A program made the translations under genes and the position numbers. A stretch of 59,501 bases of DNA, counting the filler. It is 4 parts of 4 records of this genome, joined end to end, with 100 filler letters (N's around TTAATTAATTAA, not from the genome) between each part and the next. Parts side by side here need not be neighbours in the genome. Positions count along the whole stretch, not along the records: positions 46,124 to 59,501 come from DRR723986_2333; 3 more parts are not named here. One strand, 5' to 3'. Below the pieces are notes generated by a model that was not told where the DNA came from, did not search any database, and was given only the letters and a program-made list of their open reading frames with translations. Below are positions 4,394 through 59,501 of the stretch, piece by piece. Numbering within the stretch: the first letter of the stretch is position 1; the number at the start of each line of letters is the position of its first letter.

Positions 4394-5176
4394 TCACCCG
4401 AACGGCCAGGAACCGTTCTCGCCAAAGAGGCTTTTCACGTCCGGCCATTCAGCGCCCTCATGATGAGCGGCGATCTCCAGAAAGATCTCTAGAAACTCGA
4501 AGCAGCCGTCGTCATGCACCAGATGGTGCGTCAGGAGGCCGACCGGCTCGGCGCCGGTGTTGCGCCGGCGGGTAAGCTGCAGGTCGAAGCGCAGCCGTGC
4601 ACTTTCCCAGCCGATGAAGCGCACCTGCTTTTTCCATTTCAGGATATCGATGTGCGACTGGAGTTGATGCGCCCGCGGAAAGTTGTGCCAGGTGAAGGTT
4701 GAAAGACCCGACAGGCCGATACCGGGCAGGCGGCGGGAGATTTCAGGATCGATCCGGTTCCAGGGAGGCACCATGGCCTTCACGAACTTGTCGCCGAAGA
4801 GCTCCTGAAGGCAGTCATGACCTGCCTTGAGCTCGGCCATCAGGTCGTCCGGATCCCGCCGGGAACCAAGCTCGGCTGCTTTTTCGCCGAGGTCCTTCCG
4901 CTGGAAATTCTTGTGCTGCCAGCCGTGTTGCAGAACCAGCGCATGTGGTTCATCGTCAAACCGCTCTGCAAGGGCTTTCGTCGCCATCTTGGGGATGACC
5001 GCGAAAGCCAGATCGACCTTGTGGGTGTTGGCAAGCGACAACATACGTTCAAGAGCTGGTGTCGGTTCGATAGCGTCGTCATCGCGCCACCAGAAGCGGA
5101 CCTTGCGGCCGCGTTCGGCAAACCAGTCGAGATGATCGGTAAGCTCCTGCCGGAAGCGCTGCGGGTCAGTGGTCAT
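4394..5176 (-). CDS. Polysaccharide deacetylase-like protein
   Basis: WWRDDDA, QHGWQH, VPPWNRI, GLLTHHLVHD; ATGA overlap with the upstream GT. Confidence 0.85.
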   Translation of the reverse strand: MTTDPQRFRQELTDHLDWFAERGRKVRFWWRDDDAIEPTPALERMLSLANTHKVDLAFAVIPKMATKALAERFDDEPHALVLQHGWQHKNFQRKDLGEKAAELGSRRDPDDLMAELKAGHDCLQELFGDKFVKAMVPPWNRIDPEISRRLPGIGLSGLSTFTWHNFPRAHQLQSHIDILKWKKQVRFIGWESARLRFDLQLTRRRNTGAEPVGLLTHHLVHDDGCFEFLEIFLEIAAHHEGAEWPDVKSLFGENGSWPFG

Positions 5177-6327
5177 GACATCCGGTCTTTCAGGTCTTGA
5201 AGCAGGACACGGGCGCTTTCCTCCGCACCACCCAGGCGGACGCTGTGCTTGCTGCGCGGAAGAGCCAGAGCATCGTCTATGGCAGCGGCAAGCCGCTCCG
5301 GTGTGAGGTCTGCTTCCGGCGTAACGATCGCCTGTCCATGGCCGGCAAGAGCTTCCGCGCGCTGCGTCTGCTCGGTCTCGTTGATCTGGGCAAAGGGCAC
5401 GAAGACAGCCGGAACACCAGCCTGAAGAATGTCGAGCACGGTGTTGTAGCCTGCCTGGCTGACGGAAAGGCGCGCCCGTTTCAAAAGGTCCGGAAAGTCG
5501 CGCCGGGCGCGCTCTACAATGACGCCATCCACCGCGCTTTGCCGGTAAATGGCAAAGGCGTCGTCGGAAATGTCGTGACCGATCAGCACCCGCCACGGCG
5601 TGTCTTCAGCGCGGCGCGACAGTGGTCTGGCTTCCAGTGCCGCCGACAGCAGGCTTTCGGCAACGGCGCCGCCACCGCAGGAAATGATCACCTCGTCCTC
5701 GCCGTCCGGTCCTTCCACAGCAGGCCGTGGATCGCCGCCGACATAACCGGTGTAGCGAACCAGATGGTCGACCTCCTCGGCAAAGGGGAAACTGTCTGCA
5801 AGGCGGATGAAGTCCGGATCGGAATGGATCAGGATCCGGTCGTAGAATTTCAGCGCCTGGTCGGCCATCCAGCGTTCTTTCCAGAGCTGCTTCTTTCGCA
5901 CCAGAATGTCGCGAATGGAAGTGGCAGTCAGCGGGAACTTGCTGCTCGCCTTGGCCGTTTCCAGAAGAGGGGCCAGTTCGAAGTCAAGCTGGCGACGACC
6001 GAAGGGGTAGGTCTCGGTCAGGAGCAGGTCGAAGTCGTCGGCCTCAAGAACTTGAATCGATGCTTTAACGCGGGCGATTTTCCAAGCATCGTCAATATCT
6101 TCATTGTCCAAAGTCACAAGACGCTTGAAGGTCGCGTCCGGACTTCTGCAGGCTGGCAGTTCGACGATCTTCAGTGATCCGGTGTCGAGTGTCGGCGGTA
6201 TGGTGTTGCCGCTGGCAAGTGTCACCTCAACGCCTTCGGCGGCCAGTGCCTTGCCGATGGCAGCGGCCCGCACGACATGGCCTGTCCCGAGCAGATGCTG
6301 AACATGTATGAGGGCCTTGAAGCTCAT
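5173..6327 (-). CDS. Glycosyltransferase, GT-B fold (COG4671/GT28-C-like)
   Basis: HVQHLLGTGH, ETYPFGRR, SQAGYNT, EQTQRA. Confidence 0.88.
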   Translation of the reverse strand: MSFKALIHVQHLLGTGHVVRAAAIGKALAAEGVEVTLASGNTIPPTLDTGSLKIVELPACRSPDATFKRLVTLDNEDIDDAWKIARVKASIQVLEADDFDLLLTETYPFGRRQLDFELAPLLETAKASSKFPLTATSIRDILVRKKQLWKERWMADQALKFYDRILIHSDPDFIRLADSFPFAEEVDHLVRYTGYVGGDPRPAVEGPDGEDEVIISCGGGAVAESLLSAALEARPLSRRAEDTPWRVLIGHDISDDAFAIYRQSAVDGVIVERARRDFPDLLKRARLSVSQAGYNTVLDILQAGVPAVFVPFAQINETEQTQRAEALAGHGQAIVTPEADLTPERLAAAIDDALALPRSKHSVRLGGAEESARVLLQDLKDRMS

Positions 6328-9947: not shown

Positions 9948-10178
9948 ACTGCCCCTAAATTTGTAAAACTGCCCCGAAAGGCTTATGTCTCAATTGATTG
10001 GCCCTTGTCACGTGCGGATATTTCTTGACAGGGGACTTTCGACAAGGAACGGTCTGCGGACCCTTTTAAAGCGGTTGTGGCAAATGTTAATCCCGGCTGG
10101 CGCAACTAACTCGGATCGCTAATATACCAAATATGATCTGCTTGCACATATTTGATCCTTGTCTGTTTGGATGAGCTT

Positions 10179-12761
10179 ATGGAAAAGAGCCTTTTCGGTT
10201 TTATTTGGAAATACAGCGCCAGACAGCAAATCTTCATTCTCATGGTCACCGTACTCACATACCCGGTGGTCTATGTCCTTCTCGAACTGCCAAAACTGAT
10301 TGTCAATGATGCCGTCCAGGGAGACAATTTTCCGCGGACGATCCTTGGCGTCGATTTCGATCAAGTTCCATATCTTCTTCTTCTGTGTTTTGCCTTCCTG
10401 TTTCTGGTCGTCGTTTCGAACGGGCTGAAATTCTATCTCAATGTCTACAAGGGACGTCTCGGCGAACGCATGCTCCGGCGCCTGCGGTTCGAGCTGTTCC
10501 AGCGGGTGCTTCGCTTCCGCTTGCCGCATTTCAGAAAGGTCAGTTCAGGCGAAATCATTCCGATGATCACGTCGGAAGTGGAGGATGTCGGCGGTTACAT
10601 TGGTGAAGCCTTCGCGCTGCCGGCCTACCAAGGCGGCATGCTGATCGTGCAGATCGGCTTCATCTTCATGCAGGACCCGCTTCTGGGTCTTGCGGCCATC
10701 AGTTCCTATCCCATCCAGGGCTATGTGATCCCGCTTTTGCAGCGCAAGGTGGTGCTGTTGTCCCGGCAGCGGGTGCGCAACATCCGCGTCATTGCCGACA
10801 AGGTTGGCGAGAGCATCACGGGCGTTGCCGAAATCCATGCCAACGACGCGGCGGCCTGGCATTCGGCGGATATCTCCGACCGCCTCTACGAGAACTTCAA
10901 GATCCGGTATGACATCTTCAACCGGAAATTCCTGATCAAGTTCCTGAACAACTTCATGAACCAGCTGACGCCGTTCTTCTTCTACCTGATCGGCGGGTAT
11001 CTGGTCATTCAGGGCAATCTGAGCATCGGTGCCCTGCTGGCGGTTATCGCGGCCTACAAGGATCTGGCTGGCCCCTGGAAAGAGCTGCTTTCCTTCTACC
11101 AGATGACTGCGGACGTCAGCGTCAAGTATCAGACTGTTGTCGAAAACTTCGACCCGTCGGATATTTATGACAAGGAGCGCCTGACCTCGGACGATACGGT
11201 CGACCTTTCCGGCGACGTCAAGCTCGAGAATGTCAATTTCTCCGGCGGTGCGGCCGGGCAGGAGGTCGTCGACGTTTCGCTGACCGTTCCGTCCGGCAGT
11301 GCTTGCGCGATTGTCGGTCCGGACGGATCCGGAAGGTCGGAGGTCCTGCAGCTTGCCGCCGGGCTTGTTGCGGCCGTCTCCGGCAAGGTTTGCATCGGCA
11401 GCCACGATCTCGACAAGCTGACGGACGCCACTCTCGGCCGGCAAATCGCTTATGTCGGCGGGGCAGTGCATGTCTGGACGGGAACGATCCGGGACAACCT
11501 CTATTACGGTTTGCGCCACCGACCGCTCGTTCCGCCCCAGCGAGAGGGGGAAAGCCTGAAGAACTACAAGCGACGGCTTGCCGAAGCCAAGGAAACACGC
11601 AACCCAACGTATGACCTTGCTGCCGATTGGGACGATTTCGCTGCCGCGGGTGTCAGCGACGAGAGAGAACTCGACACAAGGGCGCTTGAACTGCTCGAGA
11701 CCGTCAAGATCGACAAGGACATCTATCGGCTCGGTCTGCAGTCGCGGTTCGATCCGACCATGGACGATGGCTTTGCCGACAAGATCCTGAACGTGCGCAA
11801 GGCACTCGCCGAGCGCATTGCCCACGAACCCGAACTTGGTGGCCTGGTCGAGCTGTGGCATCGCGATCGCTTCAATGCGAGTGCCAGCCTGGCGGACAAC
11901 CTGTTCTTTGCCGTGCCGGCCGATCCGGAAATCACCATGGACCAGGTGCCGGACCTCGATGAGGTCAAGGCCTTCCTGGCGGAAACGGGTTTCGATCAGA
12001 AGCTTCAGCAAATCGGCCTCAAGATTGCCGAAACCATGCTGGAACTGTTCTCCAATGTTTCCGGCGACAGCGGTCTGCTCGGGGCTTACTCCTTCATCAC
12101 GCTGGATGAGATTCCGGATTTCGAGCGCATTGTCCGCATCGCCAAGTCTGATCAGCCGCGCCCGGGCCTGACAGACGCCGATCGGTCACGTCTGACCGGG
12201 CTGGCCTTCAAGCTGGTCCCCGCCCGGCATCGTCTGGGTGTCATGACCGACGAATTGAAGCGCGATATCATCAGCGCCCGCCAGACGTTCCTGGAAGAGG
12301 TCGTCAAGAACAGCGACAACTTCGTTGCCTTCGATCCGGATGTCTATCTGCCGCCGCTGACCATCGAGGACAATCTCCTGTTCGGGCGTGCACGCGTCGA
12401 CCGACGGGATGCCCGGCGGCGTATCGACGATGTTATCCGCACCATTGTCGAGGAAACCGGTTTGCGGCGCCCGATCATCTATGCGGGCTTCGGATATCAC
12501 GTCGGAGTGTCCGGTTCGCGCTTGTCTGCCGGCCAGCGCCGAAAGATCGCACTGGTCCGCGGTCTTCTGAAAAACGCAAAAATCACCATATTGGACGATA
12601 TCGCCACCGGTATGACGGACGAGGACAAGACGCTTCGCGAAGGCTTGAGGCAAATCCTGTCCGGCAAAACATTCCTGTTCGGCACGTCCAATGCCGAAAT
12701 AGCAGCTGAATTCGATCAGCGCTTCATTCTGGATCAAGGACGGCTTTCAGAAAAAGGGTAA
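10179..12761 (+). CDS. ABC exporter (TMD + atypical NBD with large insertion)
   Basis: N-terminal ABC membrane domain; Walker A GPDGSGRS, signature LSAGQ, Walker B ILDD. Confidence 0.85.
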   Translation: MEKSLFGFIWKYSARQQIFILMVTVLTYPVVYVLLELPKLIVNDAVQGDNFPRTILGVDFDQVPYLLLLCFAFLFLVVVSNGLKFYLNVYKGRLGERMLRRLRFELFQRVLRFRLPHFRKVSSGEIIPMITSEVEDVGGYIGEAFALPAYQGGMLIVQIGFIFMQDPLLGLAAISSYPIQGYVIPLLQRKVVLLSRQRVRNIRVIADKVGESITGVAEIHANDAAAWHSADISDRLYENFKIRYDIFNRKFLIKFLNNFMNQLTPFFFYLIGGYLVIQGNLSIGALLAVIAAYKDLAGPWKELLSFYQMTADVSVKYQTVVENFDPSDIYDKERLTSDDTVDLSGDVKLENVNFSGGAAGQEVVDVSLTVPSGSACAIVGPDGSGRSEVLQLAAGLVAAVSGKVCIGSHDLDKLTDATLGRQIAYVGGAVHVWTGTIRDNLYYGLRHRPLVPPQREGESLKNYKRRLAEAKETRNPTYDLAADWDDFAAAGVSDERELDTRALELLETVKIDKDIYRLGLQSRFDPTMDDGFADKILNVRKALAERIAHEPELGGLVELWHRDRFNASASLADNLFFAVPADPEITMDQVPDLDEVKAFLAETGFDQKLQQIGLKIAETMLELFSNVSGDSGLLGAYSFITLDEIPDFERIVRIAKSDQPRPGLTDADRSRLTGLAFKLVPARHRLGVMTDELKRDIISARQTFLEEVVKNSDNFVAFDPDVYLPPLTIEDNLLFGRARVDRRDARRRIDDVIRTIVEETGLRRPIIYAGFGYHVGVSGSRLSAGQRRKIALVRGLLKNAKITILDDIATGMTDEDKTLREGLRQILSGKTFLFGTSNAEIAAEFDQRFILDQGRLSEKG

Positions 12762-27411: not shown

Positions 27412-27511
27412 NNNNNNNNNNNNNNNNNNNNNNNNNNNNNNNNNNNNNNNNNNNNTTAATTAATTAANNNNNNNNNNNNNNNNNNNNNNNNNNNNNNNNN
27501 NNNNNNNNNNN
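27412..27511. other. Artificial contig linker
   Basis: N44-TTAATTAATTAA-N44 (six-frame stop). Confidence 0.98.
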
Positions 27512-36190: not shown

Positions 36191-37225
36191 CTATTCGCAG
36201 CGTTCGGGGATCTCGAGGCAACGGCAGGCAGCGTGCATTTCACGGGATACCTCTTCACCAAGCGTCTCGACAGCGCGATCGGCTTCGAGTTCACATTGTT
36301 TCAAGGTGAAGGTTTCCGAGGGTATGAACCGCGGAGTAAGGTCACAGACCGATTGTACGACTGAGGCTTCCATGGGGGCCAGACCTGCCAATTCTCTCAG
36401 CTGTCCAAGTTCTCGCCCCGTTTCGCAAGCGTCCTTGATTTCCAGCACAGTAACGCCGAAAATCGTTGCCACTCCTATTCCGGGTACAGACTCAAAAGCC
36501 ATCGAGGCAACGTTGCGTTGTGCGGAAACTAAGGTTCTGTCGAGAATGCGCTTGGACAATCGGTCGATCTCGGAGATGCTCTTCACCTCGAGGACCCGAC
36601 TTGATTCTGCTTTTGAAAGCAATTTTTCCAGACTTGAATTTTGTTGCGATACCTCCTCGATTCTTTTCTTATCGGCGACGGACGTCGTGGTCAGATTTTC
36701 GAGTTTGACCAATGCATCGTTCTTCTCTCGGAGAACAGACCTGTAGCGCAACTCTGATCGTGCATTCTCTTTGGCCAATCGCTTTGCTTCGCGAGAATTG
36801 GATATCGCGTCCTCCCTCGCTTGAGTGAGAAGCTTCTGCACCGCGGACAGACGGGCCGTTGTAGCCGAATTTTCGGCCGCGAGTGCCATGTTCTTGTTGC
36901 GCAAGAGGGACGCGTCCTCCGCCAGTTCCTCCGCCGCTTGTTCTGCCTTGGCGGAGCGGCGTTTCTCACTGTTAAGTGAGTTTTCGATTTCGGCGCGCTT
37001 TCCCTTTTCTGCAGACAATTCGCTTTTGACTTCCGCTAACTCCGAAGCCAGAGAAACTGCCTTGGCAACGCCGATGGTGTCAAGAAATGCCAGTGCAGCG
37101 TTCGCAATCAGTGGAACCGTAAGAACCGCGATCTGCAGAGCAATCAGGCCCACAAAGAGAAGTCTGAGAAACCACTTCGATAAGTGCTCAATTGAAAACG
37201 CTAATGAATTGATCGGTCGTTTCAT
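36191..37225 (-). CDS. Hypothetical TM + coiled-coil protein; homologue of 55625-56431
   Basis: N-terminal hydrophobic helix, heptad region, conserved KRI..RT...A.RN..S...ES.P..G.A....VT.....D.C.T; ATGA-coupled to the ankyrin gene. Confidence 0.85.
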   Translation of the reverse strand: MKRPINSLAFSIEHLSKWFLRLLFVGLIALQIAVLTVPLIANAALAFLDTIGVAKAVSLASELAEVKSELSAEKGKRAEIENSLNSEKRRSAKAEQAAEELAEDASLLRNKNMALAAENSATTARLSAVQKLLTQAREDAISNSREAKRLAKENARSELRYRSVLREKNDALVKLENLTTTSVADKKRIEEVSQQNSSLEKLLSKAESSRVLEVKSISEIDRLSKRILDRTLVSAQRNVASMAFESVPGIGVATIFGVTVLEIKDACETGRELGQLRELAGLAPMEASVVQSVCDLTPRFIPSETFTLKQCELEADRAVETLGEEVSREMHAACRCLEIPERCE

Positions 37226-38160
37226 TCCTCGATCCCGCATTCATCTCTAAGATCCCAAAAGAATTGAGGTTTCTCCTTTCCTTCCAACTTTCCTTTCAAC
37301 GCACGATACAGGGAATGCCCCACATCGGTCGACGCGCAACGTTCGTCCTTGTCGGCATTATCGTAAAGAAACTCGATCAAATCCATGTCGGAAGAGAAAT
37401 AGGCAAGGTACATCAATGCTGACCTGCTCTCGCGACCCTCTTTTTCGGAAAGCGAGGCTCCGTTCTCTACCAGAACCCGGGCAATTGCGCTTGCCTGCTT
37501 TGGATCAGGGTTTGTGCCGGACAAGTGAAGCGGTGTGTAATCTTCGTAATCCTGGGGGTCTATGGAGGCGCCATTTTTCAAAAGAAACTCTACGACGTCG
37601 GCATTCGAACTCTTGGCTGCCAGATGGAGAGGTGTCCGCTCGTTTAGGTTCAAAGGCTCCAATGATGCCCCTGCAGCAGCCAAGGTTATTACGATTGGCA
37701 ATCCATCGATCCGTTCGGCTGCAAGATGCATCGCAGCAGTTCCGCAAGTGTAAAGCAGATCCCTCAGCGTGTGGTGACAGCTCCCGCTCGCAACCCTTGC
37801 GTCATCCAAATCTTGTTCGCGGTCAATGAGCTCTTGAAGGACCGATACATTCGTTCCTTCGCTCGCCGCAACATGCAGGGCGGTATAGCCATCCAACCGC
37901 CGTGCATCCAAAGAAACACCGCGCATAAGAAGAAGAGGGACGACCCCGGGTTCTTTAGCCCAACGTGCCGCGCGATGAAGCAGGGTTTCGCCGTTGACGG
38001 GATCTCTGAACGATGCTTCTTCCGAACTGCCAAGGCATTGGCCCAATTCAGGAAGGGTAGCTGTTCGGAAAAACTCTGCGTCGGGTGGAACTGGACAAGA
38101 AGCGGCCAAAGCCAGCGGTGTGCAAACGAGAATGGATGAAAAGAATAGAATCTTTCGCAT
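37222..38160 (-). CDS. Exported ankyrin-repeat protein
   Basis: Signal-peptide-like MRKILFFSSILVCTPLALA; repeats GETLLHRAA, GYTALHVAA, GTAAMHLAA, RTPLHLAA, YTPLHLS. Confidence 0.88.
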   Translation of the reverse strand: MRKILFFSSILVCTPLALAASCPVPPDAEFFRTATLPELGQCLGSSEEASFRDPVNGETLLHRAARWAKEPGVVPLLLMRGVSLDARRLDGYTALHVAASEGTNVSVLQELIDREQDLDDARVASGSCHHTLRDLLYTCGTAAMHLAAERIDGLPIVITLAAAGASLEPLNLNERTPLHLAAKSSNADVVEFLLKNGASIDPQDYEDYTPLHLSGTNPDPKQASAIARVLVENGASLSEKEGRESRSALMYLAYFSSDMDLIEFLYDNADKDERCASTDVGHSLYRALKGKLEGKEKPQFFWDLRDECGIEE

Positions 38161-38644: not shown

Positions 38645-38744
38645 NNNNNNNNNNNNNNNNNNNNNNNNNNNNNNNNNNNNNNNNNNNNTTAATTAATTAA
38701 NNNNNNNNNNNNNNNNNNNNNNNNNNNNNNNNNNNNNNNNNNNN
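38645..38744. other. Artificial contig linker
   Basis: N44-TTAATTAATTAA-N44. Confidence 0.98.
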
Positions 38745-46023: not shown

Positions 46024-46123
46024 NNNNNNNNNNNNNNNNNNNNNNNNNNNNNNNNNNNNNNNNNNNNTTAATTAATTAANNNNNNNNNNNNNNNNNNNNN
46101 NNNNNNNNNNNNNNNNNNNNNNN
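46024..46123. other. Artificial contig linker
   Basis: N44-TTAATTAATTAA-N44. Confidence 0.98.
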
Positions 46124-50162: not shown

Positions 50163-50510
50163 TCAGAGCCCCCGCGTCACGGGGCGTACCACCGGGATTT
50201 CGAGGGTGAAGCCCAGATAGAGATCGGGCTCTGTATCGCGACGCACAAAATCCATCACCACACTGCCCAAAGGACACAAACTTGTGTCCTGCGCACTGAT
50301 CTCAATATCAAGGCGCGTGTCACTCACGCGCGTAAGACCGCCGCCTGCCTCTGTGGAAAGCTGCGCCAAAAGCTGATCAGCCCCCACAGAGGCACGGATC
50401 TGCGCCACCAACTCAAGGCCTGCGGGAAAGAGCGGCCCCTCCGCCTCCAAGCTGAGGCGATAGGCATAGCCCATGACAATGGCTGGGCCCTCTGAGATCT
50501 GAACGGTCAT
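50163..50510 (-). CDS. Phage structural adaptor-like hypothetical protein
   Basis: Beta-rich 115 aa; ATGA overlap with the o-spanin. Confidence 0.7.
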   Translation of the reverse strand: MTVQISEGPAIVMGYAYRLSLEAEGPLFPAGLELVAQIRASVGADQLLAQLSTEAGGGLTRVSDTRLDIEISAQDTSLCPLGSVVMDFVRRDTEPDLYLGFTLEIPVVRPVTRGL

Positions 50511-50698
50511 GGCGCCCACCCGCAAATCTCTGCACCCAAACTATTATGCGTGAGGATCTGGCGCTGCGTGCCAAGACTGAGCTCATCGCTCACAGAAGGG
50601 CGAATGGGCGTGGCCCAATCACACTCAGTCGCCTGTTTTGTCGCGCATCCAGCGAGACAGCTTATCAGAGACAGTGTCAGGATGATCGGCCTCCACAT
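50507..50698 (-). CDS. Putative o-spanin (Rz1-like lipoprotein)
   Basis: Lipobox LAGC; C.W..PI...D.L...T.RQIL.HN......CG; overlaps the i-spanin 3' end. Confidence 0.75.
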   Translation of the reverse strand: MWRPIILTLSLISCLAGCATKQATECDWATPIRPSVSDELSLGTQRQILTHNSLGAEICGWAP

Positions 50699-50885
50699 CG
50701 CGCCGTACCTCCGCTGCATGTTTGAGAAGTTTGACCCGCGCCTCTGCGGCCTTGACCCTATAAGCTGCCACAGCTGCAGCGCGACCAAAGCGCCAGGCGA
50801 CGAAGAGCCCGAGTATAAGGGCTGTGGCATGCGCCAGCGCGCAGGCAACCCGACGAGGAATGCGGGTGAGGACTGGCACCACCAT
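50625..50885 (-). CDS. Putative i-spanin (Rz-like)
   Basis: N-terminal TM then helical region; directly after the endolysin. Confidence 0.7.
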   Translation of the reverse strand: MVVPVLTRIPRRVACALAHATALILGLFVAWRFGRAAAVAAYRVKAAEARVKLLKHAAEVRRDVEADHPDTVSDKLSRWMRDKTGD

Positions 50886-50888
50886 CGC

Positions 50889-51533
50889 TTAGCCCAGGCC
50901 TGCCAGGATTTTCTTCACCCGTTCGCGCGCAATCCAAAGGGCCGCAAGGCAAATGAGCCCCGCCATCCCAAGCGCTATGACCTGTGCCATGCCATCCAGC
51001 GCGCGCAGCGCCTCAAACCCTGCCGCAAGTGAGGCCAGGATTTGCAGACCAGCCGCCTGCACCGTCGTGCTCTGTGCAGGCGTGCTGCGCCGCTTGGGCA
51101 GGGCCTCGGGCGCAATCGCACGCCGCAGCGCGACAATGCGCGAGACCGGATAGGCGGAGCGCTTCACCTGATTGGATTGATTGCCGCCCAGGAGATAGAC
51201 TTTATCGCCCTCCCGGTGGTCCCAAAATCCTACATGGCCCTGCCATGGCTTACCGCGTGCCAAGACCACAACATCGCCGGGGCGCGCGTCCTCAAGGCGC
51301 ACAGCGCGCCCCCAGCGCTCATAGCTGCGCGCCAGCAACGAGCCGCTGCCTTGCAGACCACAGCGGGCCAGAACCGCCCCCACAAAGGCCGCGCACCACG
51401 GCACCTCGTCATGAGGTTGTGGGATGCCCGCCTCCTGGTAATAGGACAGCACGCGCGGGTTATCCCCCTCGGCCCATTCCACAACGCCCAAATCCGCCTC
51501 TGCGGTTTGATAAATCAGATCTCCCAGATCCAT
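50889..51533 (-). CDS. Endolysin, TIGR02594 (NlpC/P60-like) family, with C-terminal hydrophobic segment
   Basis: DEVPWCAAFVG, ARSY..WG, GDVVV..RG..WQGHVGF, LGGNQ. Confidence 0.88.
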   Translation of the reverse strand: MDLGDLIYQTAEADLGVVEWAEGDNPRVLSYYQEAGIPQPHDEVPWCAAFVGAVLARCGLQGSGSLLARSYERWGRAVRLEDARPGDVVVLARGKPWQGHVGFWDHREGDKVYLLGGNQSNQVKRSAYPVSRIVALRRAIAPEALPKRRSTPAQSTTVQAAGLQILASLAAGFEALRALDGMAQVIALGMAGLICLAALWIARERVKKILAGLG

Positions 51534-51552
51534 GCCTGACCCCCATAAATGC

Positions 51553-51576
51553 AAAAAGCCGCCCCCTCGGGACGGC
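51553..51576 (-). terminator. Terminator-like hairpin just upstream of the endolysin
   Basis: GCCGTCCC-GAG-GGGGCGGC-TTTTT on the minus strand. Confidence 0.6.
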
Positions 51577-55152: not shown

Positions 55153-55560
55153 TTAAACTGGCCAGGCAACCCGGCAGGACGTCAGCGGGAGGCTCACAAG
55201 CCCCTCAGGCGCCATGCCCACGGCCTTGGCGCCCATGCAGATGCCAAACCCAAGGCCTGTATCAGCCAGAACGATATCGCCTCTCGTAGCAAGAAGCACA
55301 GCTGGGCGGGGCTCACCCAAAAGCGCATGCCCCATCTTCTCAAGCGAGGACCAGCCCAGGCGGCGCATCACCCGCTCGCCGCCAAGCGCAGATGTGTAGC
55401 GACCCCGCCAGAGGGCTGCCACATCCTCACCGCCCGTCAGCATCATCCGCGTCTCAAAGGCAAATGTCGGACAATCATGCAGCCCCCAGACAAACGGCTT
55501 GGCCCCCGCAGTCGTAACCGCCGCTGCAAGCAAGCGTTCCCAATGGTTAAGGCGGGGCAA
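55153..55560 (-). CDS. Tail-associated NlpC/P60-like protein (DUF6950-like)
   Basis: W..LL....PFVWG.HDC..F, WRGRY, RGDIV; only a TTG start is available next to the moron. Confidence 0.8.
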   Translation of the reverse strand: MPRLNHWERLLAAAVTTAGAKPFVWGLHDCPTFAFETRMMLTGGEDVAALWRGRYTSALGGERVMRRLGWSSLEKMGHALLGEPRPAVLLATRGDIVLADTGLGFGICMGAKAVGMAPEGLVSLPLTSCRVAWPV

Positions 55561-55624
55561 TTGCGCAATATGCCAATTATTGCCTAGAGTTTTACATCGA
55601 TGTTCAGAGGAGCCAAAGGATTCC

Positions 55625-56431
55625 ATGTTTAAATTTGCAACTCGCATTTGGGTCTTGATACTCGCAGTATCATTTGTGCTTTCACTTGGGCTGAATGCGG
55701 CAGTGGTTGGCATTGCCTCTGTGGGAACGGTTGTTGCTGGCATCTATGACGCAGTCACTGGAACTACTTCTGCCTACACAGAACTGGCTTCAAACAGGAG
55801 CCGCCTTCAATCGGAAGTTGGAGACTTGCTAGAAGAACGTGATCGCGCTGTCCGCAGAGCTGGCGAACTTTTCGAGCAAGTTGAAGCGGGTAAGGCAGAC
55901 AACGCCCGATTAACCGACAAGATCATTGAAAATGAGGCGCGTATTTCTAGCCTGGAAGATGATATTCGCGCTAAAGACCGCAAAATCAGTGTTCTTACTG
56001 ATGATGTAAAAAAGCCTAGAAAGGTCGTATATCGCGGCACTCAAAAAACAGTGTCTGAGGCTATTCTCGACACCAATAAGCGGATTGCCCGCAGAACTGT
56101 GTCAGCTGCCACGAGAAATGCATCGTCAGTCGTGGCTGAATCCATCCCTTATTTTGGAATAGCAGTAATGCTTGCAGTTACCGCCGCCGATTTGAACGAT
56201 AGCTGCAATACAATCAAAGACTTACACGCACTAGATGTAGCAATTGATCCAAACAAAGCGTTTTCTCCAGACGATAGCGAAATTTGTGGTTTGAAAGTTC
56301 CGACGCCTGAAGAAACCTGGGAACAGGTAAAAAATGGTTCTGCGGAAGCATGGGATCAAGCGAGAGAATATCTGCCATCGCTACCGGAATACTCACTGCC
56401 AGCATGGAATGATGTATCTCTTTGGCCATAG
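55625..56431 (+). CDS. AT-rich antisense moron: TM + coiled-coil protein; homologue of 36191-37225
   Basis: GAGGAG/AAGGA RBS; opposite strand to the tail operon; its TAG abuts the TAA of the neighbour. Confidence 0.88.
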   Translation: MFKFATRIWVLILAVSFVLSLGLNAAVVGIASVGTVVAGIYDAVTGTTSAYTELASNRSRLQSEVGDLLEERDRAVRRAGELFEQVEAGKADNARLTDKIIENEARISSLEDDIRAKDRKISVLTDDVKKPRKVVYRGTQKTVSEAILDTNKRIARRTVSAATRNASSVVAESIPYFGIAVMLAVTAADLNDSCNTIKDLHALDVAIDPNKAFSPDDSEICGLKVPTPEETWEQVKNGSAEAWDQAREYLPSLPEYSLPAWNDVSLWP

Positions 56432-56992
56432 TTACCCCCGCCCCCAGGTGATTTCGCGGTCTTGGATTGCGGTTACGTATTCAAAGCCGAGATCGCCCGG
56501 GTAAAGCGCTTGTTGGCTTTCATGGGTATAGCGCCAGGTGCGGGCCACGGTGAGGTCAATTAATCGGCTCTCATAGCTGATGGTGATCGTGCAGGTGTCT
56601 GCATCATCCTTGATTTCTGGGACATCAAGCCGGCCTGTGAAGGCTTGAACTGGGTCTGCGATGATGCTGCCATCTTCCGCCAAAAGCCCCAGCCAGATCC
56701 GCCCCGGCAAACCCTGCCGTGCCTCCTCAATGGCCATCTGCACCAAATCAAGCGGCACGCCGGAGAGCGACACCGCCGTGCCACCCGCCACAACCTCACC
56801 GCTTTCATCGATGGAGCCAAGACCCAAAAGCGCACCTGCTCCAGACCAGCTCACCCCGTTCCAGCTGATCTCACCAAGCCCTGACCAAATGCGCACCCAG
56901 CCGGTGGCAAATTCTCCTTCAAAAAAAATCACTGGGCGCAGATGCTGATCTGCCAGCGCTTCAGCAAAGGCGGCTGTGATGTCGCGTGTCAT
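56432..56992 (-). CDS. Phage minor tail protein
   Basis: RIWSGLG.I.W.G..W.GAG.L, F.GRLD, ESRL.DL...WRYT.E.Q...PGD.GF. Confidence 0.85.
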   Translation of the reverse strand: MTRDITAAFAEALADQHLRPVIFFEGEFATGWVRIWSGLGEISWNGVSWSGAGALLGLGSIDESGEVVAGGTAVSLSGVPLDLVQMAIEEARQGLPGRIWLGLLAEDGSIIADPVQAFTGRLDVPEIKDDADTCTITISYESRLIDLTVARTWRYTHESQQALYPGDLGFEYVTAIQDREITWGRG

Positions 56993-57583: not shown

Positions 57584-59501
57584 TTAGATCACCTGACCCC
57601 GGCGTCGGCCATCGGCCACGCTTTCTTTGGCAATGCGCGCGATCTCGGGGATGGCTGCGCGAAGTCGCGCATCGATCTGTTCCGCCACACCCGTTTGCGC
57701 ACCACGTGCGTCGATATTGACGGTCACGCCTGAGCCAATGCTGCCGCCTTGGCCATAGTCAGCTGCCTCACGGCGGTTCAGCACCCGCTCTCCCCGCTGC
57801 AGGATTGTCGGCACCTCATCAGGGCGCAAGCCGGCCCAACCGCCAGCATGCATCCGCGGCGCGCCCGCGAAGGCCAATGCGGGCACCTGTCGGGTATGGC
57901 CCGAGAGCCCAACGATGCCGCCGGTATGGGACACTGCTGCTGCCACAGAGCCCCCACCAAAGATGCCCGAGAGTGCAGACGCGATGGGCCCCAGCACCGC
58001 GCGTTTGAACGCCAGCACCGCGAGATCAGCGAGGATCGAGCGGACAAGCGCCTTGAAGTCGAACTTGCCGGTTTCGACAAAATTCCGAAACGCGCTTTCG
58101 GCGCTGCTGAAGGCACCACTCAGGGTTTCTCCCAGACCTTTGCCCCAGTTGAGCGCGTCGGTGGCATAGCTGCGCAAAGCCTCTGACACGGCCTGCCAAC
58201 CGGTGACAATTCGGTCGCGGGCGCCACCGGCAGCCCCGCCAGCGCGTCCCATGGCCTCGGTCAAACGATCGGCAGATGCCGTGGCATCATCGAGCGCGGT
58301 CGCCCCGTCATTGCCGGCGCCCGCGACGGCATCGCGCAGGGCTTGCCAGGAGGTGAGCGGAGCCGTTGCGCCATTTGCAAGATCCGTCGCCGCCTGACGA
58401 TAGGTATTGGCCGTGGCCAGTGCCTCGGCTGCAATCCCGGAAAGACCGAGGTCCTCGGCCGAGAGCGGATTGTCGAGAAACGCCTGACGAAATGCCTCCG
58501 CTGCCGCGGTGCCCGCGTCGGCCGAGGCCCCGGCGAAGGGATTAGCAATGTCGCCGAGACTGATCTCGCCAATTTGCCCGAAGGTGGTCTCGATGCCGAC
58601 CGCCGCCAGAGCGTCCCGAATGCGCCCCGTGAAGGCGTCAATCCGGCGGATCGCCCCGTTCAGCATGGCCTCGATCCCGTCGAGCATGCGGTTAGCGGCC
58701 GTGAACACGAGATCGCCAATCACAGCAGGAAGCCGGGACCAGATTTCGCGCACGGCCAAAAGCGCGCCCTCGAAGGTATTGGCGGTGGTGTTGCCGAAGG
58801 CGACCACACTCTCCATCGCGGAAGCCATGCCCGAGGCCGCATCGGCCTTGAGGTCGTAGAACATCGCCGTCGCACGGGCCCCGGCGGCCGAAGCGCCGAG
58901 CTGGATCCGCTCCCACGCCTCGACGGCGACATTTTTCAAAAGCCGCATCGCCTCGCCGAAGCCGCCAGCACCAGCGGCGAGCCGGGTGAACCAGTAGACC
59001 AATTCGCCGGCACCCACGATCAGCGCGCCGATCCCGGTGCGGATGAGCGCACCTTTCAGCACGACGAGGGTCGTGGCCAATCCCCGCACCGATAGCGCGG
59101 CGACGGCCATCGCCGCGACCCAGCGTCCGGCAAGAAACGTGGCGAAGGTGCCTGCGTAGATCGCCAGTCGGTCGAGATTGGCCAGCACCGCATCGAAGGC
59201 TCGGCTGATCGGGCTGGTCGAGACCGCCAAAGACACAAAGGCATTGGCCGCCGCCTCCAGCGTGGGCGCCAGTGCCACCGCGATCCGGTTCCGCACGCCG
59301 GTAAAGACCTGGCCGATACTGACAAGGGCCAGTTCCGACCGACGCATCGCAGCGATGGCGTCGGCGTCGAGCACCGCGCCAAGCGCCTGCGCTTGTGCCC
59401 CGAGCCGGGTCATCTCTGCCCCGCCGTTTTGCAGGAGTGGAATAAGCCGCGTGGCATCGGATGCCATGGCCTCGAGATAGAAGGTCATCTCCTGTTGGCT
59501 G
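57584..59501 (-). CDS. Tail tape measure protein (lambda-like C-terminus), 5'-truncated
   Basis: Long Ala-rich helical ORF; F..TGK.DFK.LV.SILADL, H.GG, DEVPTILQRGERVL. Confidence 0.92.
   Translation of the reverse strand, partial: SQQEMTFYLEAMASDATRLIPLLQNGGAEMTRLGAQAQALGAVLDADAIAAMRRSELALVSIGQVFTGVRNRIAVALAPTLEAAANAFVSLAVSTSPISRAFDAVLANLDRLAIYAGTFATFLAGRWVAAMAVAALSVRGLATTLVVLKGALIRTGIGALIVGAGELVYWFTRLAAGAGGFGEAMRLLKNVAVEAWERIQLGASAAGARATAMFYDLKADAASGMASAMESVVAFGNTTANTFEGALLAVREIWSRLPAVIGDLVFTAANRMLDGIEAMLNGAIRRIDAFTGRIRDALAAVGIETTFGQIGEISLGDIANPFAGASADAGTAAAEAFRQAFLDNPLSAEDLGLSGIAAEALATANTYRQAATDLANGATAPLTSWQALRDAVAGAGNDGATALDDATASADRLTEAMGRAGGAAGGARDRIVTGWQAVSEALRSYATDALNWGKGLGETLSGAFSSAESAFRNFVETGKFDFKALVRSILADLAVLAFKRAVLGPIASALSGIFGGGSVAAAVSHTGGIVGLSGHTRQVPALAFAGAPRMHAGGWAGLRPDEVPTILQRGERVLNRREAADYGQGGSIGSGVTVNIDARGAQTGVAEQIDARLRAAIPEIARIAKESVADGRRRGQVI

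Follow-up and report, generated by a model that had tools for sequence, protein, structure and literature searches.

The gene for the 268-aa protein P0001 is a true moron in a prophage of a marine roseobacter, where it occupies an insertion hotspot flanked by two tail genes of a lambda-like siphophage, and database and genome searches firmly establish that P0001 belongs to a new, unnamed, lineage-restricted protein family. The window, i.e., the whole stretch of DNA that was analysed (59,501 nt), is made up of four contigs separated by N runs at 27412-27511, 38645-38744 and 46024-46123, with GC contents in window order of about 58, 68, 70 and 61%. If the window represents a metagenome bin, its contigs may derive from different organisms. 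Since P0001 and its distant relative P0002 are encoded on separate contigs of differing GC content, the two proteins possibly do not come from one organism. The features discussed below are collected in Table 1.

Table 1. Positions of the cassette, its gene, the encoded protein segments and relevant surrounding genes, counted along the whole window.
Feature	Position	Strand	Remarks
Moron cassette	55561..56431	+	64-nt 5' region plus gene; 46.7% GC
5' region of P0001 gene	55561..55624	+	RBS AAAGGA, GAGGAG; candidate promoter TTGCGC-N17-CTAGAG (inferred only)
P0001 gene, 268 aa, intact	55625..56431	+	ATG at 55625, inside ORF 55499-56431 (+)
N-terminal hydrophobic membrane anchor, residues 8-40	55646..55744	+	conserved Asn24; conserved AVTG motif just behind
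Coiled-coil stalk, one long helix, residues 48-129	55766..56011	+	AlphaFold pLDDT ~85-90
Conserved head domain, residues 130-268	56012..56428	+	AlphaFold2, 131 sequences
Cys194 codon	56204..56206	+	invariant
Cys221 codon	56285..56287	+	invariant; presumed disulfide partner of Cys194
186-aa minor-tail gene	56432..56992	-	lambda L-like by position; upstream flank of slot in late operon
DUF6950 tail gene	55153..55560	-	lambda K-like by position; start TTG 55558-55560
Tape measure	57584-59488		Pfam Tape_meas_lam_C; cut off by end of contig
CHAP endolysin	50889-51554	-	hydrophobic TM-like segment at its end
ORF after CHAP endolysin	50507-50848	-	lipoprotein signal LAGC
P0002, distant family member	36191-37225	-	ATG overlaps stop of ankyrin gene
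Ankyrin-repeat protein	37222..38160	-	Pfam Ank families; signal-like N-terminal segment

The cassette and its slot in the tail operon

ORFs and Pfam matches identify contig 4 as the late region of a lambda-like siphophage, encoded on the minus strand. The gene order is tape measure, a 195-aa gene, the 186-aa gene, the cassette and the DUF6950 gene, followed by an 859-aa Phage-tail_3 protein, a LydA-type holin, a CHAP endolysin and a PTR tail-fibre protein. The 186-aa gene matched no Pfam family, and its relatives in the best 80 IMG/VR contigs show 88-97% identity. For the DUF6950 gene, the TTG codon was taken as the start instead of the longer ORF that extends to 55743, because the Pfam match and the tblastn matches of relatives begin at residue 64 of that ORF; the empty-site junctions of related phages fit the same start. 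The ORF after the endolysin is the sole lipobox ORF of the lysis region, and an adjacent i-spanin is not evident. It has a lipoprotein signal, and its product may act as an o-spanin or else as a lipoprotein of surface exclusion.

The cassette reaches exactly from the start of the DUF6950 gene to the stop of the 186-aa gene, and its gene runs antisense to the surrounding tail genes. A sequence-only reading of this DNA had described an opposite-strand gene of 268 aa within the tail operon, with its own ribosome-binding site and with its stop in contact with that of the neighbour. All of this was found: the reading frame is intact from its ATG, AAAGGA lies 4 nt 5' of this codon with GAGGAG slightly farther upstream, and the TAG stop (56429-56431) is immediately followed by the stop (56432-56434) of the convergent 186-aa gene. 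The gene is also AT-rich as claimed (47.1% GC, GC3 0.39, 60-nt lines of 37-58%), but the 68% GC given for the adjoining DNA was too high, the 2-kb flanks having 60.4% and 62.1%. A value of about 68% suits contig 2 and not contig 4 (~61%).

Approximately 65 nt upstream of the P0001 gene can be aligned with a second slot locus (L006) and with a non-phage copy (L001), and similarity stops beyond this point. The 65-nt 5' region accompanies the family gene into the non-phage locus. A scan of the cassette with the sigma-70 consensus found no promoter. No terminator was found by scanning 3' of the gene, and there is no space for one because the stops of the P0001 and 186-aa genes abut. Among the contigs assembled from three metatranscriptome runs, none extends across the gene body, and such contigs cannot show expression either way.

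The occupancy of the slot was surveyed with the 186-aa gene as seed. A relative of this gene was present in 229 IMG/VR contigs, of which the best 80 were retained (L090-L169; junction homologous to window positions 55560/56432), and 76 of these carried both flanking genes. The slot was empty in 54/76 contigs, with 2 nt from stop to start, and held an antisense P0001-family gene in seven. Non-family cargo occupied it in the other 15: an antisense pair of a PIN toxin and a MazE-type antitoxin in six contigs (L090, L100, L121, L124, L132, L165), an antisense 83-aa Cys-rich ORF in four (L104, L106, L117, L135), a sense 100-aa ORF in two (L102, L137), 334 bp with no clear ORF in two (L127, L131) and an antisense TrkH transporter in one (L149). 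Because this cargo includes a TrkH transporter, the slot is not defence-specific. The empty form was also present in metatranscriptome run X14, where one contig of a related phage joins position 55559 to 56433. Two hallmarks of a moron, insertion between genes that related phages have side by side (54/76 contigs and the X14 junction) and a deviating base composition (47.1% versus 60.4/62.1% GC), are thus seen here, and the proposal that the gene is a moron was borne out.

The family occupies the same slot in 8/8 IMG/VR loci and in Thalassobacter stenotrophicus (CECT 5294, L004), a count that is biased as these loci were retrieved via the family. Its slot alleles fall into a long class (the window, L006, L012) and a short class of 214 aa (L004, L007, L008, L009, L013), with 40-47% identity between the two. 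Whereas the slot genes of the window and L007/L008 are only 42-44% identical, their flanks are 87-96% identical, which indicates that the alleles are swapped independently of the tail genes. Every slot allele has 48-53% GC, compared to 60-64% for the loci around them.

Family distribution and other genomic contexts

A word-index search of the public collection gave 27 proteins, one of them 99% identical to P0001 and 26 further relatives. With a profile built from 20 sequences, the number of representative proteins matched was 1227 at E <= 1e-3, 817 at E <= 1e-10 and 188 at E <= 1e-30. Relatives in Sulfitobacter, Roseovarius, Gemmobacter and Thalassobacter are named only 'hypothetical protein', and the ESM Atlas likewise contains only unnamed 'hypothetical protein' clusters. 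When P0001 and P0002 were compared with Pfam, PADLOC, PHROGs and NCBIfam, the conserved part had no match and only the coiled-coil region gave hits, which in Pfam and NCBIfam were coiled-coil families below the curated cut-off. The same was found for 56 diverse members searched with Pfam, PHROGs and PADLOC, where the conserved part remained unmatched, the hits were coiled-coil noise, and no PADLOC 2.0 or PHROGs v4 family was matched by more than three members. The sequence-only reading, which could not place the protein in a known family, was right in this respect. A tblastn search of the phage GenBank collection gave no match, nor did a word-index search with P0002, and a JGI metagenome scan with P0002 found no relative. 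Literature searches on moron or prophage superinfection exclusion and on DUF6950 found no paper on the family in main texts.

Members were present in 24/301 sampled Rhodobacteraceae genomes, and a profile of the chromosomal branch again gave 24/301. In 400 further genomes sampled across the class, no match reached the head domain. Matches in 25 genomes other than G001 in this class-level search covered only profile positions 10-167, i.e., the TM/coiled-coil part, and were rejected as noise; one of these is the unpublished genome G545, on which no claim is based. By these sequence searches, the family was found only in Rhodobacteraceae among the genomes sampled.

The contig-2 relative P0002 matches P0001 with 25/63 identities in BLASTP (E 1e-10). 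In the ungapped match of 53 residues, the 21/53 identities of the original hand count were recounted exactly. P0002 is encoded in an islet of 2 kb with 52.5% GC that comes after mfd (66.6% GC). The suggestion that it is independent cargo holds for the low-GC islet, but the gene does not stand alone: it is translationally coupled, via an ATGA overlap, to the gene of a secreted ankyrin protein. Ankyrin genes are also found directly 5' of family members, on the same strand, in two genomes (L054, 8744-9928; L060, 7362-8990), so that the pairs, overlapping or nearly so, occur in three unrelated places. The three family members concerned occupy the same basal part of the head-domain tree. Pairing at three places suggests that the P0002 branch forms a two-gene periplasmic module, whereas the phage copy P0001 is solo. 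A CRISPR Cas7 gene lies about 3.5 kb away in L054.

Recurrence of the family as mobile cargo, another element of the sequence-only reading, is apparent from several loci besides the contig-2 islet. In four of them (L002, L003, L005, L046) a recombinase with DUF6538 and Phage_integrase domains is directly followed by the family gene, with the L003 site located beside tRNA-Gln. A Sulfitobacter faviae plasmid carries a copy beside an IS66 element, and in L049 the gene is a low-GC insert in a high-GC chromosomal stretch. The L001 island combines a copy with an AAA ATPase and a DUF4365 protein, and includes apparent transposase fragments identified by eye only; in both L001 and L002, family copies are near genes for Mrr, DUF4365 or AAA ATPase proteins. 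L002 further contains fragments of the family gene and of the 466-aa downstream gene (5071-5346 and 5726-6076), which precede the intact pair (9992-10726, 11094-12494) by about 5 kb, with an Mrr restriction gene between. Judged from the sequence, these repeats look like tandem or decayed island copies. The composition contrast is opposite to the usual one in L055 (G084:C7:49500-66000), where a member of 61% GC is found in a 43% GC locus among large low-GC ORFs.

Enrichment in mobile contexts, for which the earlier reading had proposed a test, is partial: it was seen for the integrase, plasmid and island copies but does not extend to the family as a whole. The genomic contexts were compared in 21 genomes (20 plus G001; 3 genomes with matches were left out), and in 10/21 the copy lies at native GC in the housekeeping operon spoT-DUF2062-pdxJ-[X]-acpS-lepB-rnc, often with 4-nt overlaps with pdxJ or acpS. 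These loci are L058 (5919-12360), in which the operon neighbours were confirmed by Pfam, and L045, L047, L050, L051, L052, L056, L057, L061 and L064. The pdxJ-linked form is present in 10/301 sampled Rhodobacteraceae genomes, and its copies are 25-42% identical to each other. Two more genome copies are near rlmN, with the RlmN neighbour confirmed by Pfam in L062. In a FastTree of the head domain (no support values read), the phage and island copies group together beside one of two pdxJ-linked clades. Because so many copies reside in a housekeeping operon at native GC, the ancestral role of the family was probably in ordinary envelope physiology and not in defence.

Predicted architecture of the protein

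The N-terminal anchor and a coiled coil of variable length, both proposed earlier, are visible in the alignment and in the AlphaFold models. Averaged over 56 members, K+R counts are 1.62 before and 0.44 after the hydrophobic segment. This bias suggests an N-in anchor, with the remainder of the protein in the periplasm. The full-length model of P0001, in which residues 2-37 are predicted to form a helix, is weak overall (pLDDT 67, pTM 0.29). The stalk region gave matches to coiled-coil families only. Its length differs between alleles from near zero to >150 residues in the alignment, apparently by repeated units of 14 residues. The wide variation speaks against a stalk of fixed length that spans the periplasm.

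The head domain was modelled with more confidence (pLDDT 85.7, pTM 0.66). Its predicted order is a beta hairpin, helix 143-171, the turn E-S-I-P-Y-F-G, helix 177-207, a short strand region and helix 228-249. The two helices flanking the turn, of 29 and 31 residues, are predicted to form a helical hairpin, in agreement with the earlier proposal of a hairpin with a hydrophobic tip. According to the sequence, the base of the hairpin is Arg-rich in the first helix and Asp-rich in the second, and the tip is apolar, consisting of the motif E-x-[IV]-P-x-x-G and then some 10 apolar residues. P175, G178, C194 and C221 are invariant across 131 aligned members. The two cysteines probably form a disulfide.

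Neither the full-length model compared with the PDB nor the head model compared with the PDB and BFVD gave an informative fold match. Against 48,161 representative chains, the best Z value of the head model was 8.2, for generic helical hairpins and at noise level. A PDB sequence profile search produced only TM and coiled-coil matches, e.g., ATP synthase b and MotB.

Possible functions of P0001

We tentatively read P0001 as an envelope protein that the prophage expresses and that shields the lysogen from superinfecting phages at the stage of DNA entry, a role that we consider possible rather than probable. The low-GC antisense cassette is an independent acquisition, inserted between two genes for the tail tip at a hotspot in a lambda-like temperate siphophage of Rhodobacteraceae. 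Expressed from the prophage in the lysogen, P0001 would be a bitopic inner-membrane protein with a cytoplasmic N-terminus and one membrane helix containing the conserved Asn, and with a periplasmic part composed of the variable coiled-coil stalk and a head of about 130 aa with the long helical hairpin. Conserved Arg and Asp residues would hold the base of the hairpin, and its tip would be hydrophobic. The protein could then act on the tail tip of the incoming phage by intercepting one of its hydrophobic or periplasmic components, e.g., the tape measure or the tip peptidase.

This role is favoured by the exact insertion in the slot, the X14 empty-site joint, the GC content of 47% and the independent exchange of alleles. 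The integrase, IS66 and Mrr-DUF4365-AAA contexts, the patchy presence (24/301) and the six PIN/MazE pairs in the slot point in the same direction, as do the positive-inside bias, the two invariant cysteines, the confident head model and the precedent of HK97 gp15. It is disfavoured by the outcome of the promoter, terminator and PADLOC searches, and by the copies in the pdxJ operon, the 54/76 related phages with an empty slot and the TrkH gene in the slot. Complex prediction of the tape measure (634 aa) with P0001 scored 0.00, which is no answer and bears neither way, and hhalign of the P0001 family against the tape measure gave a probability of 0.5%.

HK97 gp15 is the best analogy for the function of P0001. 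PMC3594210 describes it as an inner-membrane protein encoded by a tail-operon moron that excludes superinfection, and its homologues, the YebO family, as mostly chromosomal and non-phage. Like gp15, P0001 would be a small envelope protein encoded by a tail-operon moron of a lambda-like siphophage with chromosomal homologues outside prophages. P0001 is nevertheless much the larger of the two and is predicted to have a long periplasmic stalk and a folded head. The gp15 gene lies between the chaperone and tape-measure genes, and the P0001 gene is antisense between the L-like and K-like genes. P0001 has no sequence relation to YebO, as no Pfam family matched.

Other exclusion systems offer partial parallels. 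Genes of the lactococcal Sie2009 type adjoin the integrase, as do four members of the P0001 family, and exclusion proteins of the Sie2009 and P22 SieA types resemble P0001 in being membrane-anchored and prophage-borne. They differ in host group, and comparison with the PHROG and PADLOC models gave no homology. T4 Spackle (Sp) is a periplasmic inhibitor of the tail lysozyme; it has no sequence or fold match with P0001 and is a functional analogy only, in which a tail-tip wall hydrolase would be a conceivable target. The cassette adjoins the DUF6950 tail-tip gene.

A rather unlikely alternative is that P0001 contributes to lysogenic conversion or envelope fitness. The phage would then carry a version of a host envelope protein, and this version would perform in the lysogen the task of the chromosomal pdxJ-linked homologue, e.g., membrane or wall maintenance or stress tolerance, with no direct anti-phage action. 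The operon copies at native GC with overlapping stop and start codons (10/21) agree with such a role, and so do the nesting of phage and island copies beside one pdxJ-linked clade and the TrkH transporter that one phage carries in the slot. However, the pdxJ-linked form is itself rare (10/301), the divergence of its copies is unusual for a housekeeping function, and the mobile copies are found in integrase-proximal, defence-rich variable regions. An abortive-infection or toxic membrane effector, whose hairpin tip inserts upon an infection trigger and depolarises the cell, appears improbable. While the apolar tip, the conserved polar Asn in the membrane helix, the toxin-antitoxin pairs in the same slot of six related phages and structural look-alikes such as the membrane hairpin of ATP synthase subunit c (Z ~8) could suggest this, the tip has only about 10 apolar residues in each helix, not enough to cross a bilayer, and such Z values do not rise above noise when helical models are compared. 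Moreover, the cassette has no partner sensor or antitoxin gene, and the copies in housekeeping operons speak against intrinsic toxicity.

It is highly improbable that P0001 is a lysis or virion accessory, e.g., an i-spanin-like protein working with the lipoprotein of the lysis cassette. Rz-type i-spanins are inner-membrane proteins of type II that have a coiled coil in the periplasm as well as conserved cysteines; P0001 likewise has conserved cysteines and, by prediction, the same layout of N-terminal anchor and coiled coil. The lipobox protein lacks an obvious adjacent i-spanin, and one of the 56 members weakly matches a PHROG annotated as Rz-like spanin. On the other hand, an i-spanin gene belongs to the lysis cassette and is accompanied there by an o-spanin lipoprotein gene that is embedded in it, overlaps it or adjoins it, whereas the P0001 gene is outside this cassette, running antisense at a distance of about 4 kb from the genes for holin and endolysin. 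Most related phages do without the P0001 gene, which is missing from 54/76, its relatives occur beside integrases, on a plasmid and in housekeeping operons devoid of lysis genes, and the stalk length varies widely. A further proposal, which we regard as quite improbable, is that the family is a Rhodobacteraceae-specific envelope module whose host form in the pdxJ-acpS-lepB operon was captured repeatedly by temperate phages and integrative islands, the captured copies acting as dominant-negative or decoy proteins that block the passage of DNA from phages or gene-transfer agents through the periplasm and inner membrane. If this were true, an entry factor not known before would have been found in the host protein.

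Although roseobacters abound in the sea, the contribution of prophages to these hosts is little understood. The analysis presented here delineates a large unnamed family of 1227 representative clusters, whose head is predicted with confidence but matched no known fold. Its members move among a moron hotspot of phages, island sites close to integrases, a plasmid and a housekeeping operon. The analysis also charts a hotspot of the tail operon in which an empty site, the P0001 family, toxin-antitoxin pairs, a K+ transporter and small ORFs alternate. If P0001 is an exclusion factor as we tentatively propose, it would represent a new structural class of such proteins and could help to trace the route by which roseophage DNA enters the cell; if it is not, it would still be a family-specific envelope protein that deserves a name.
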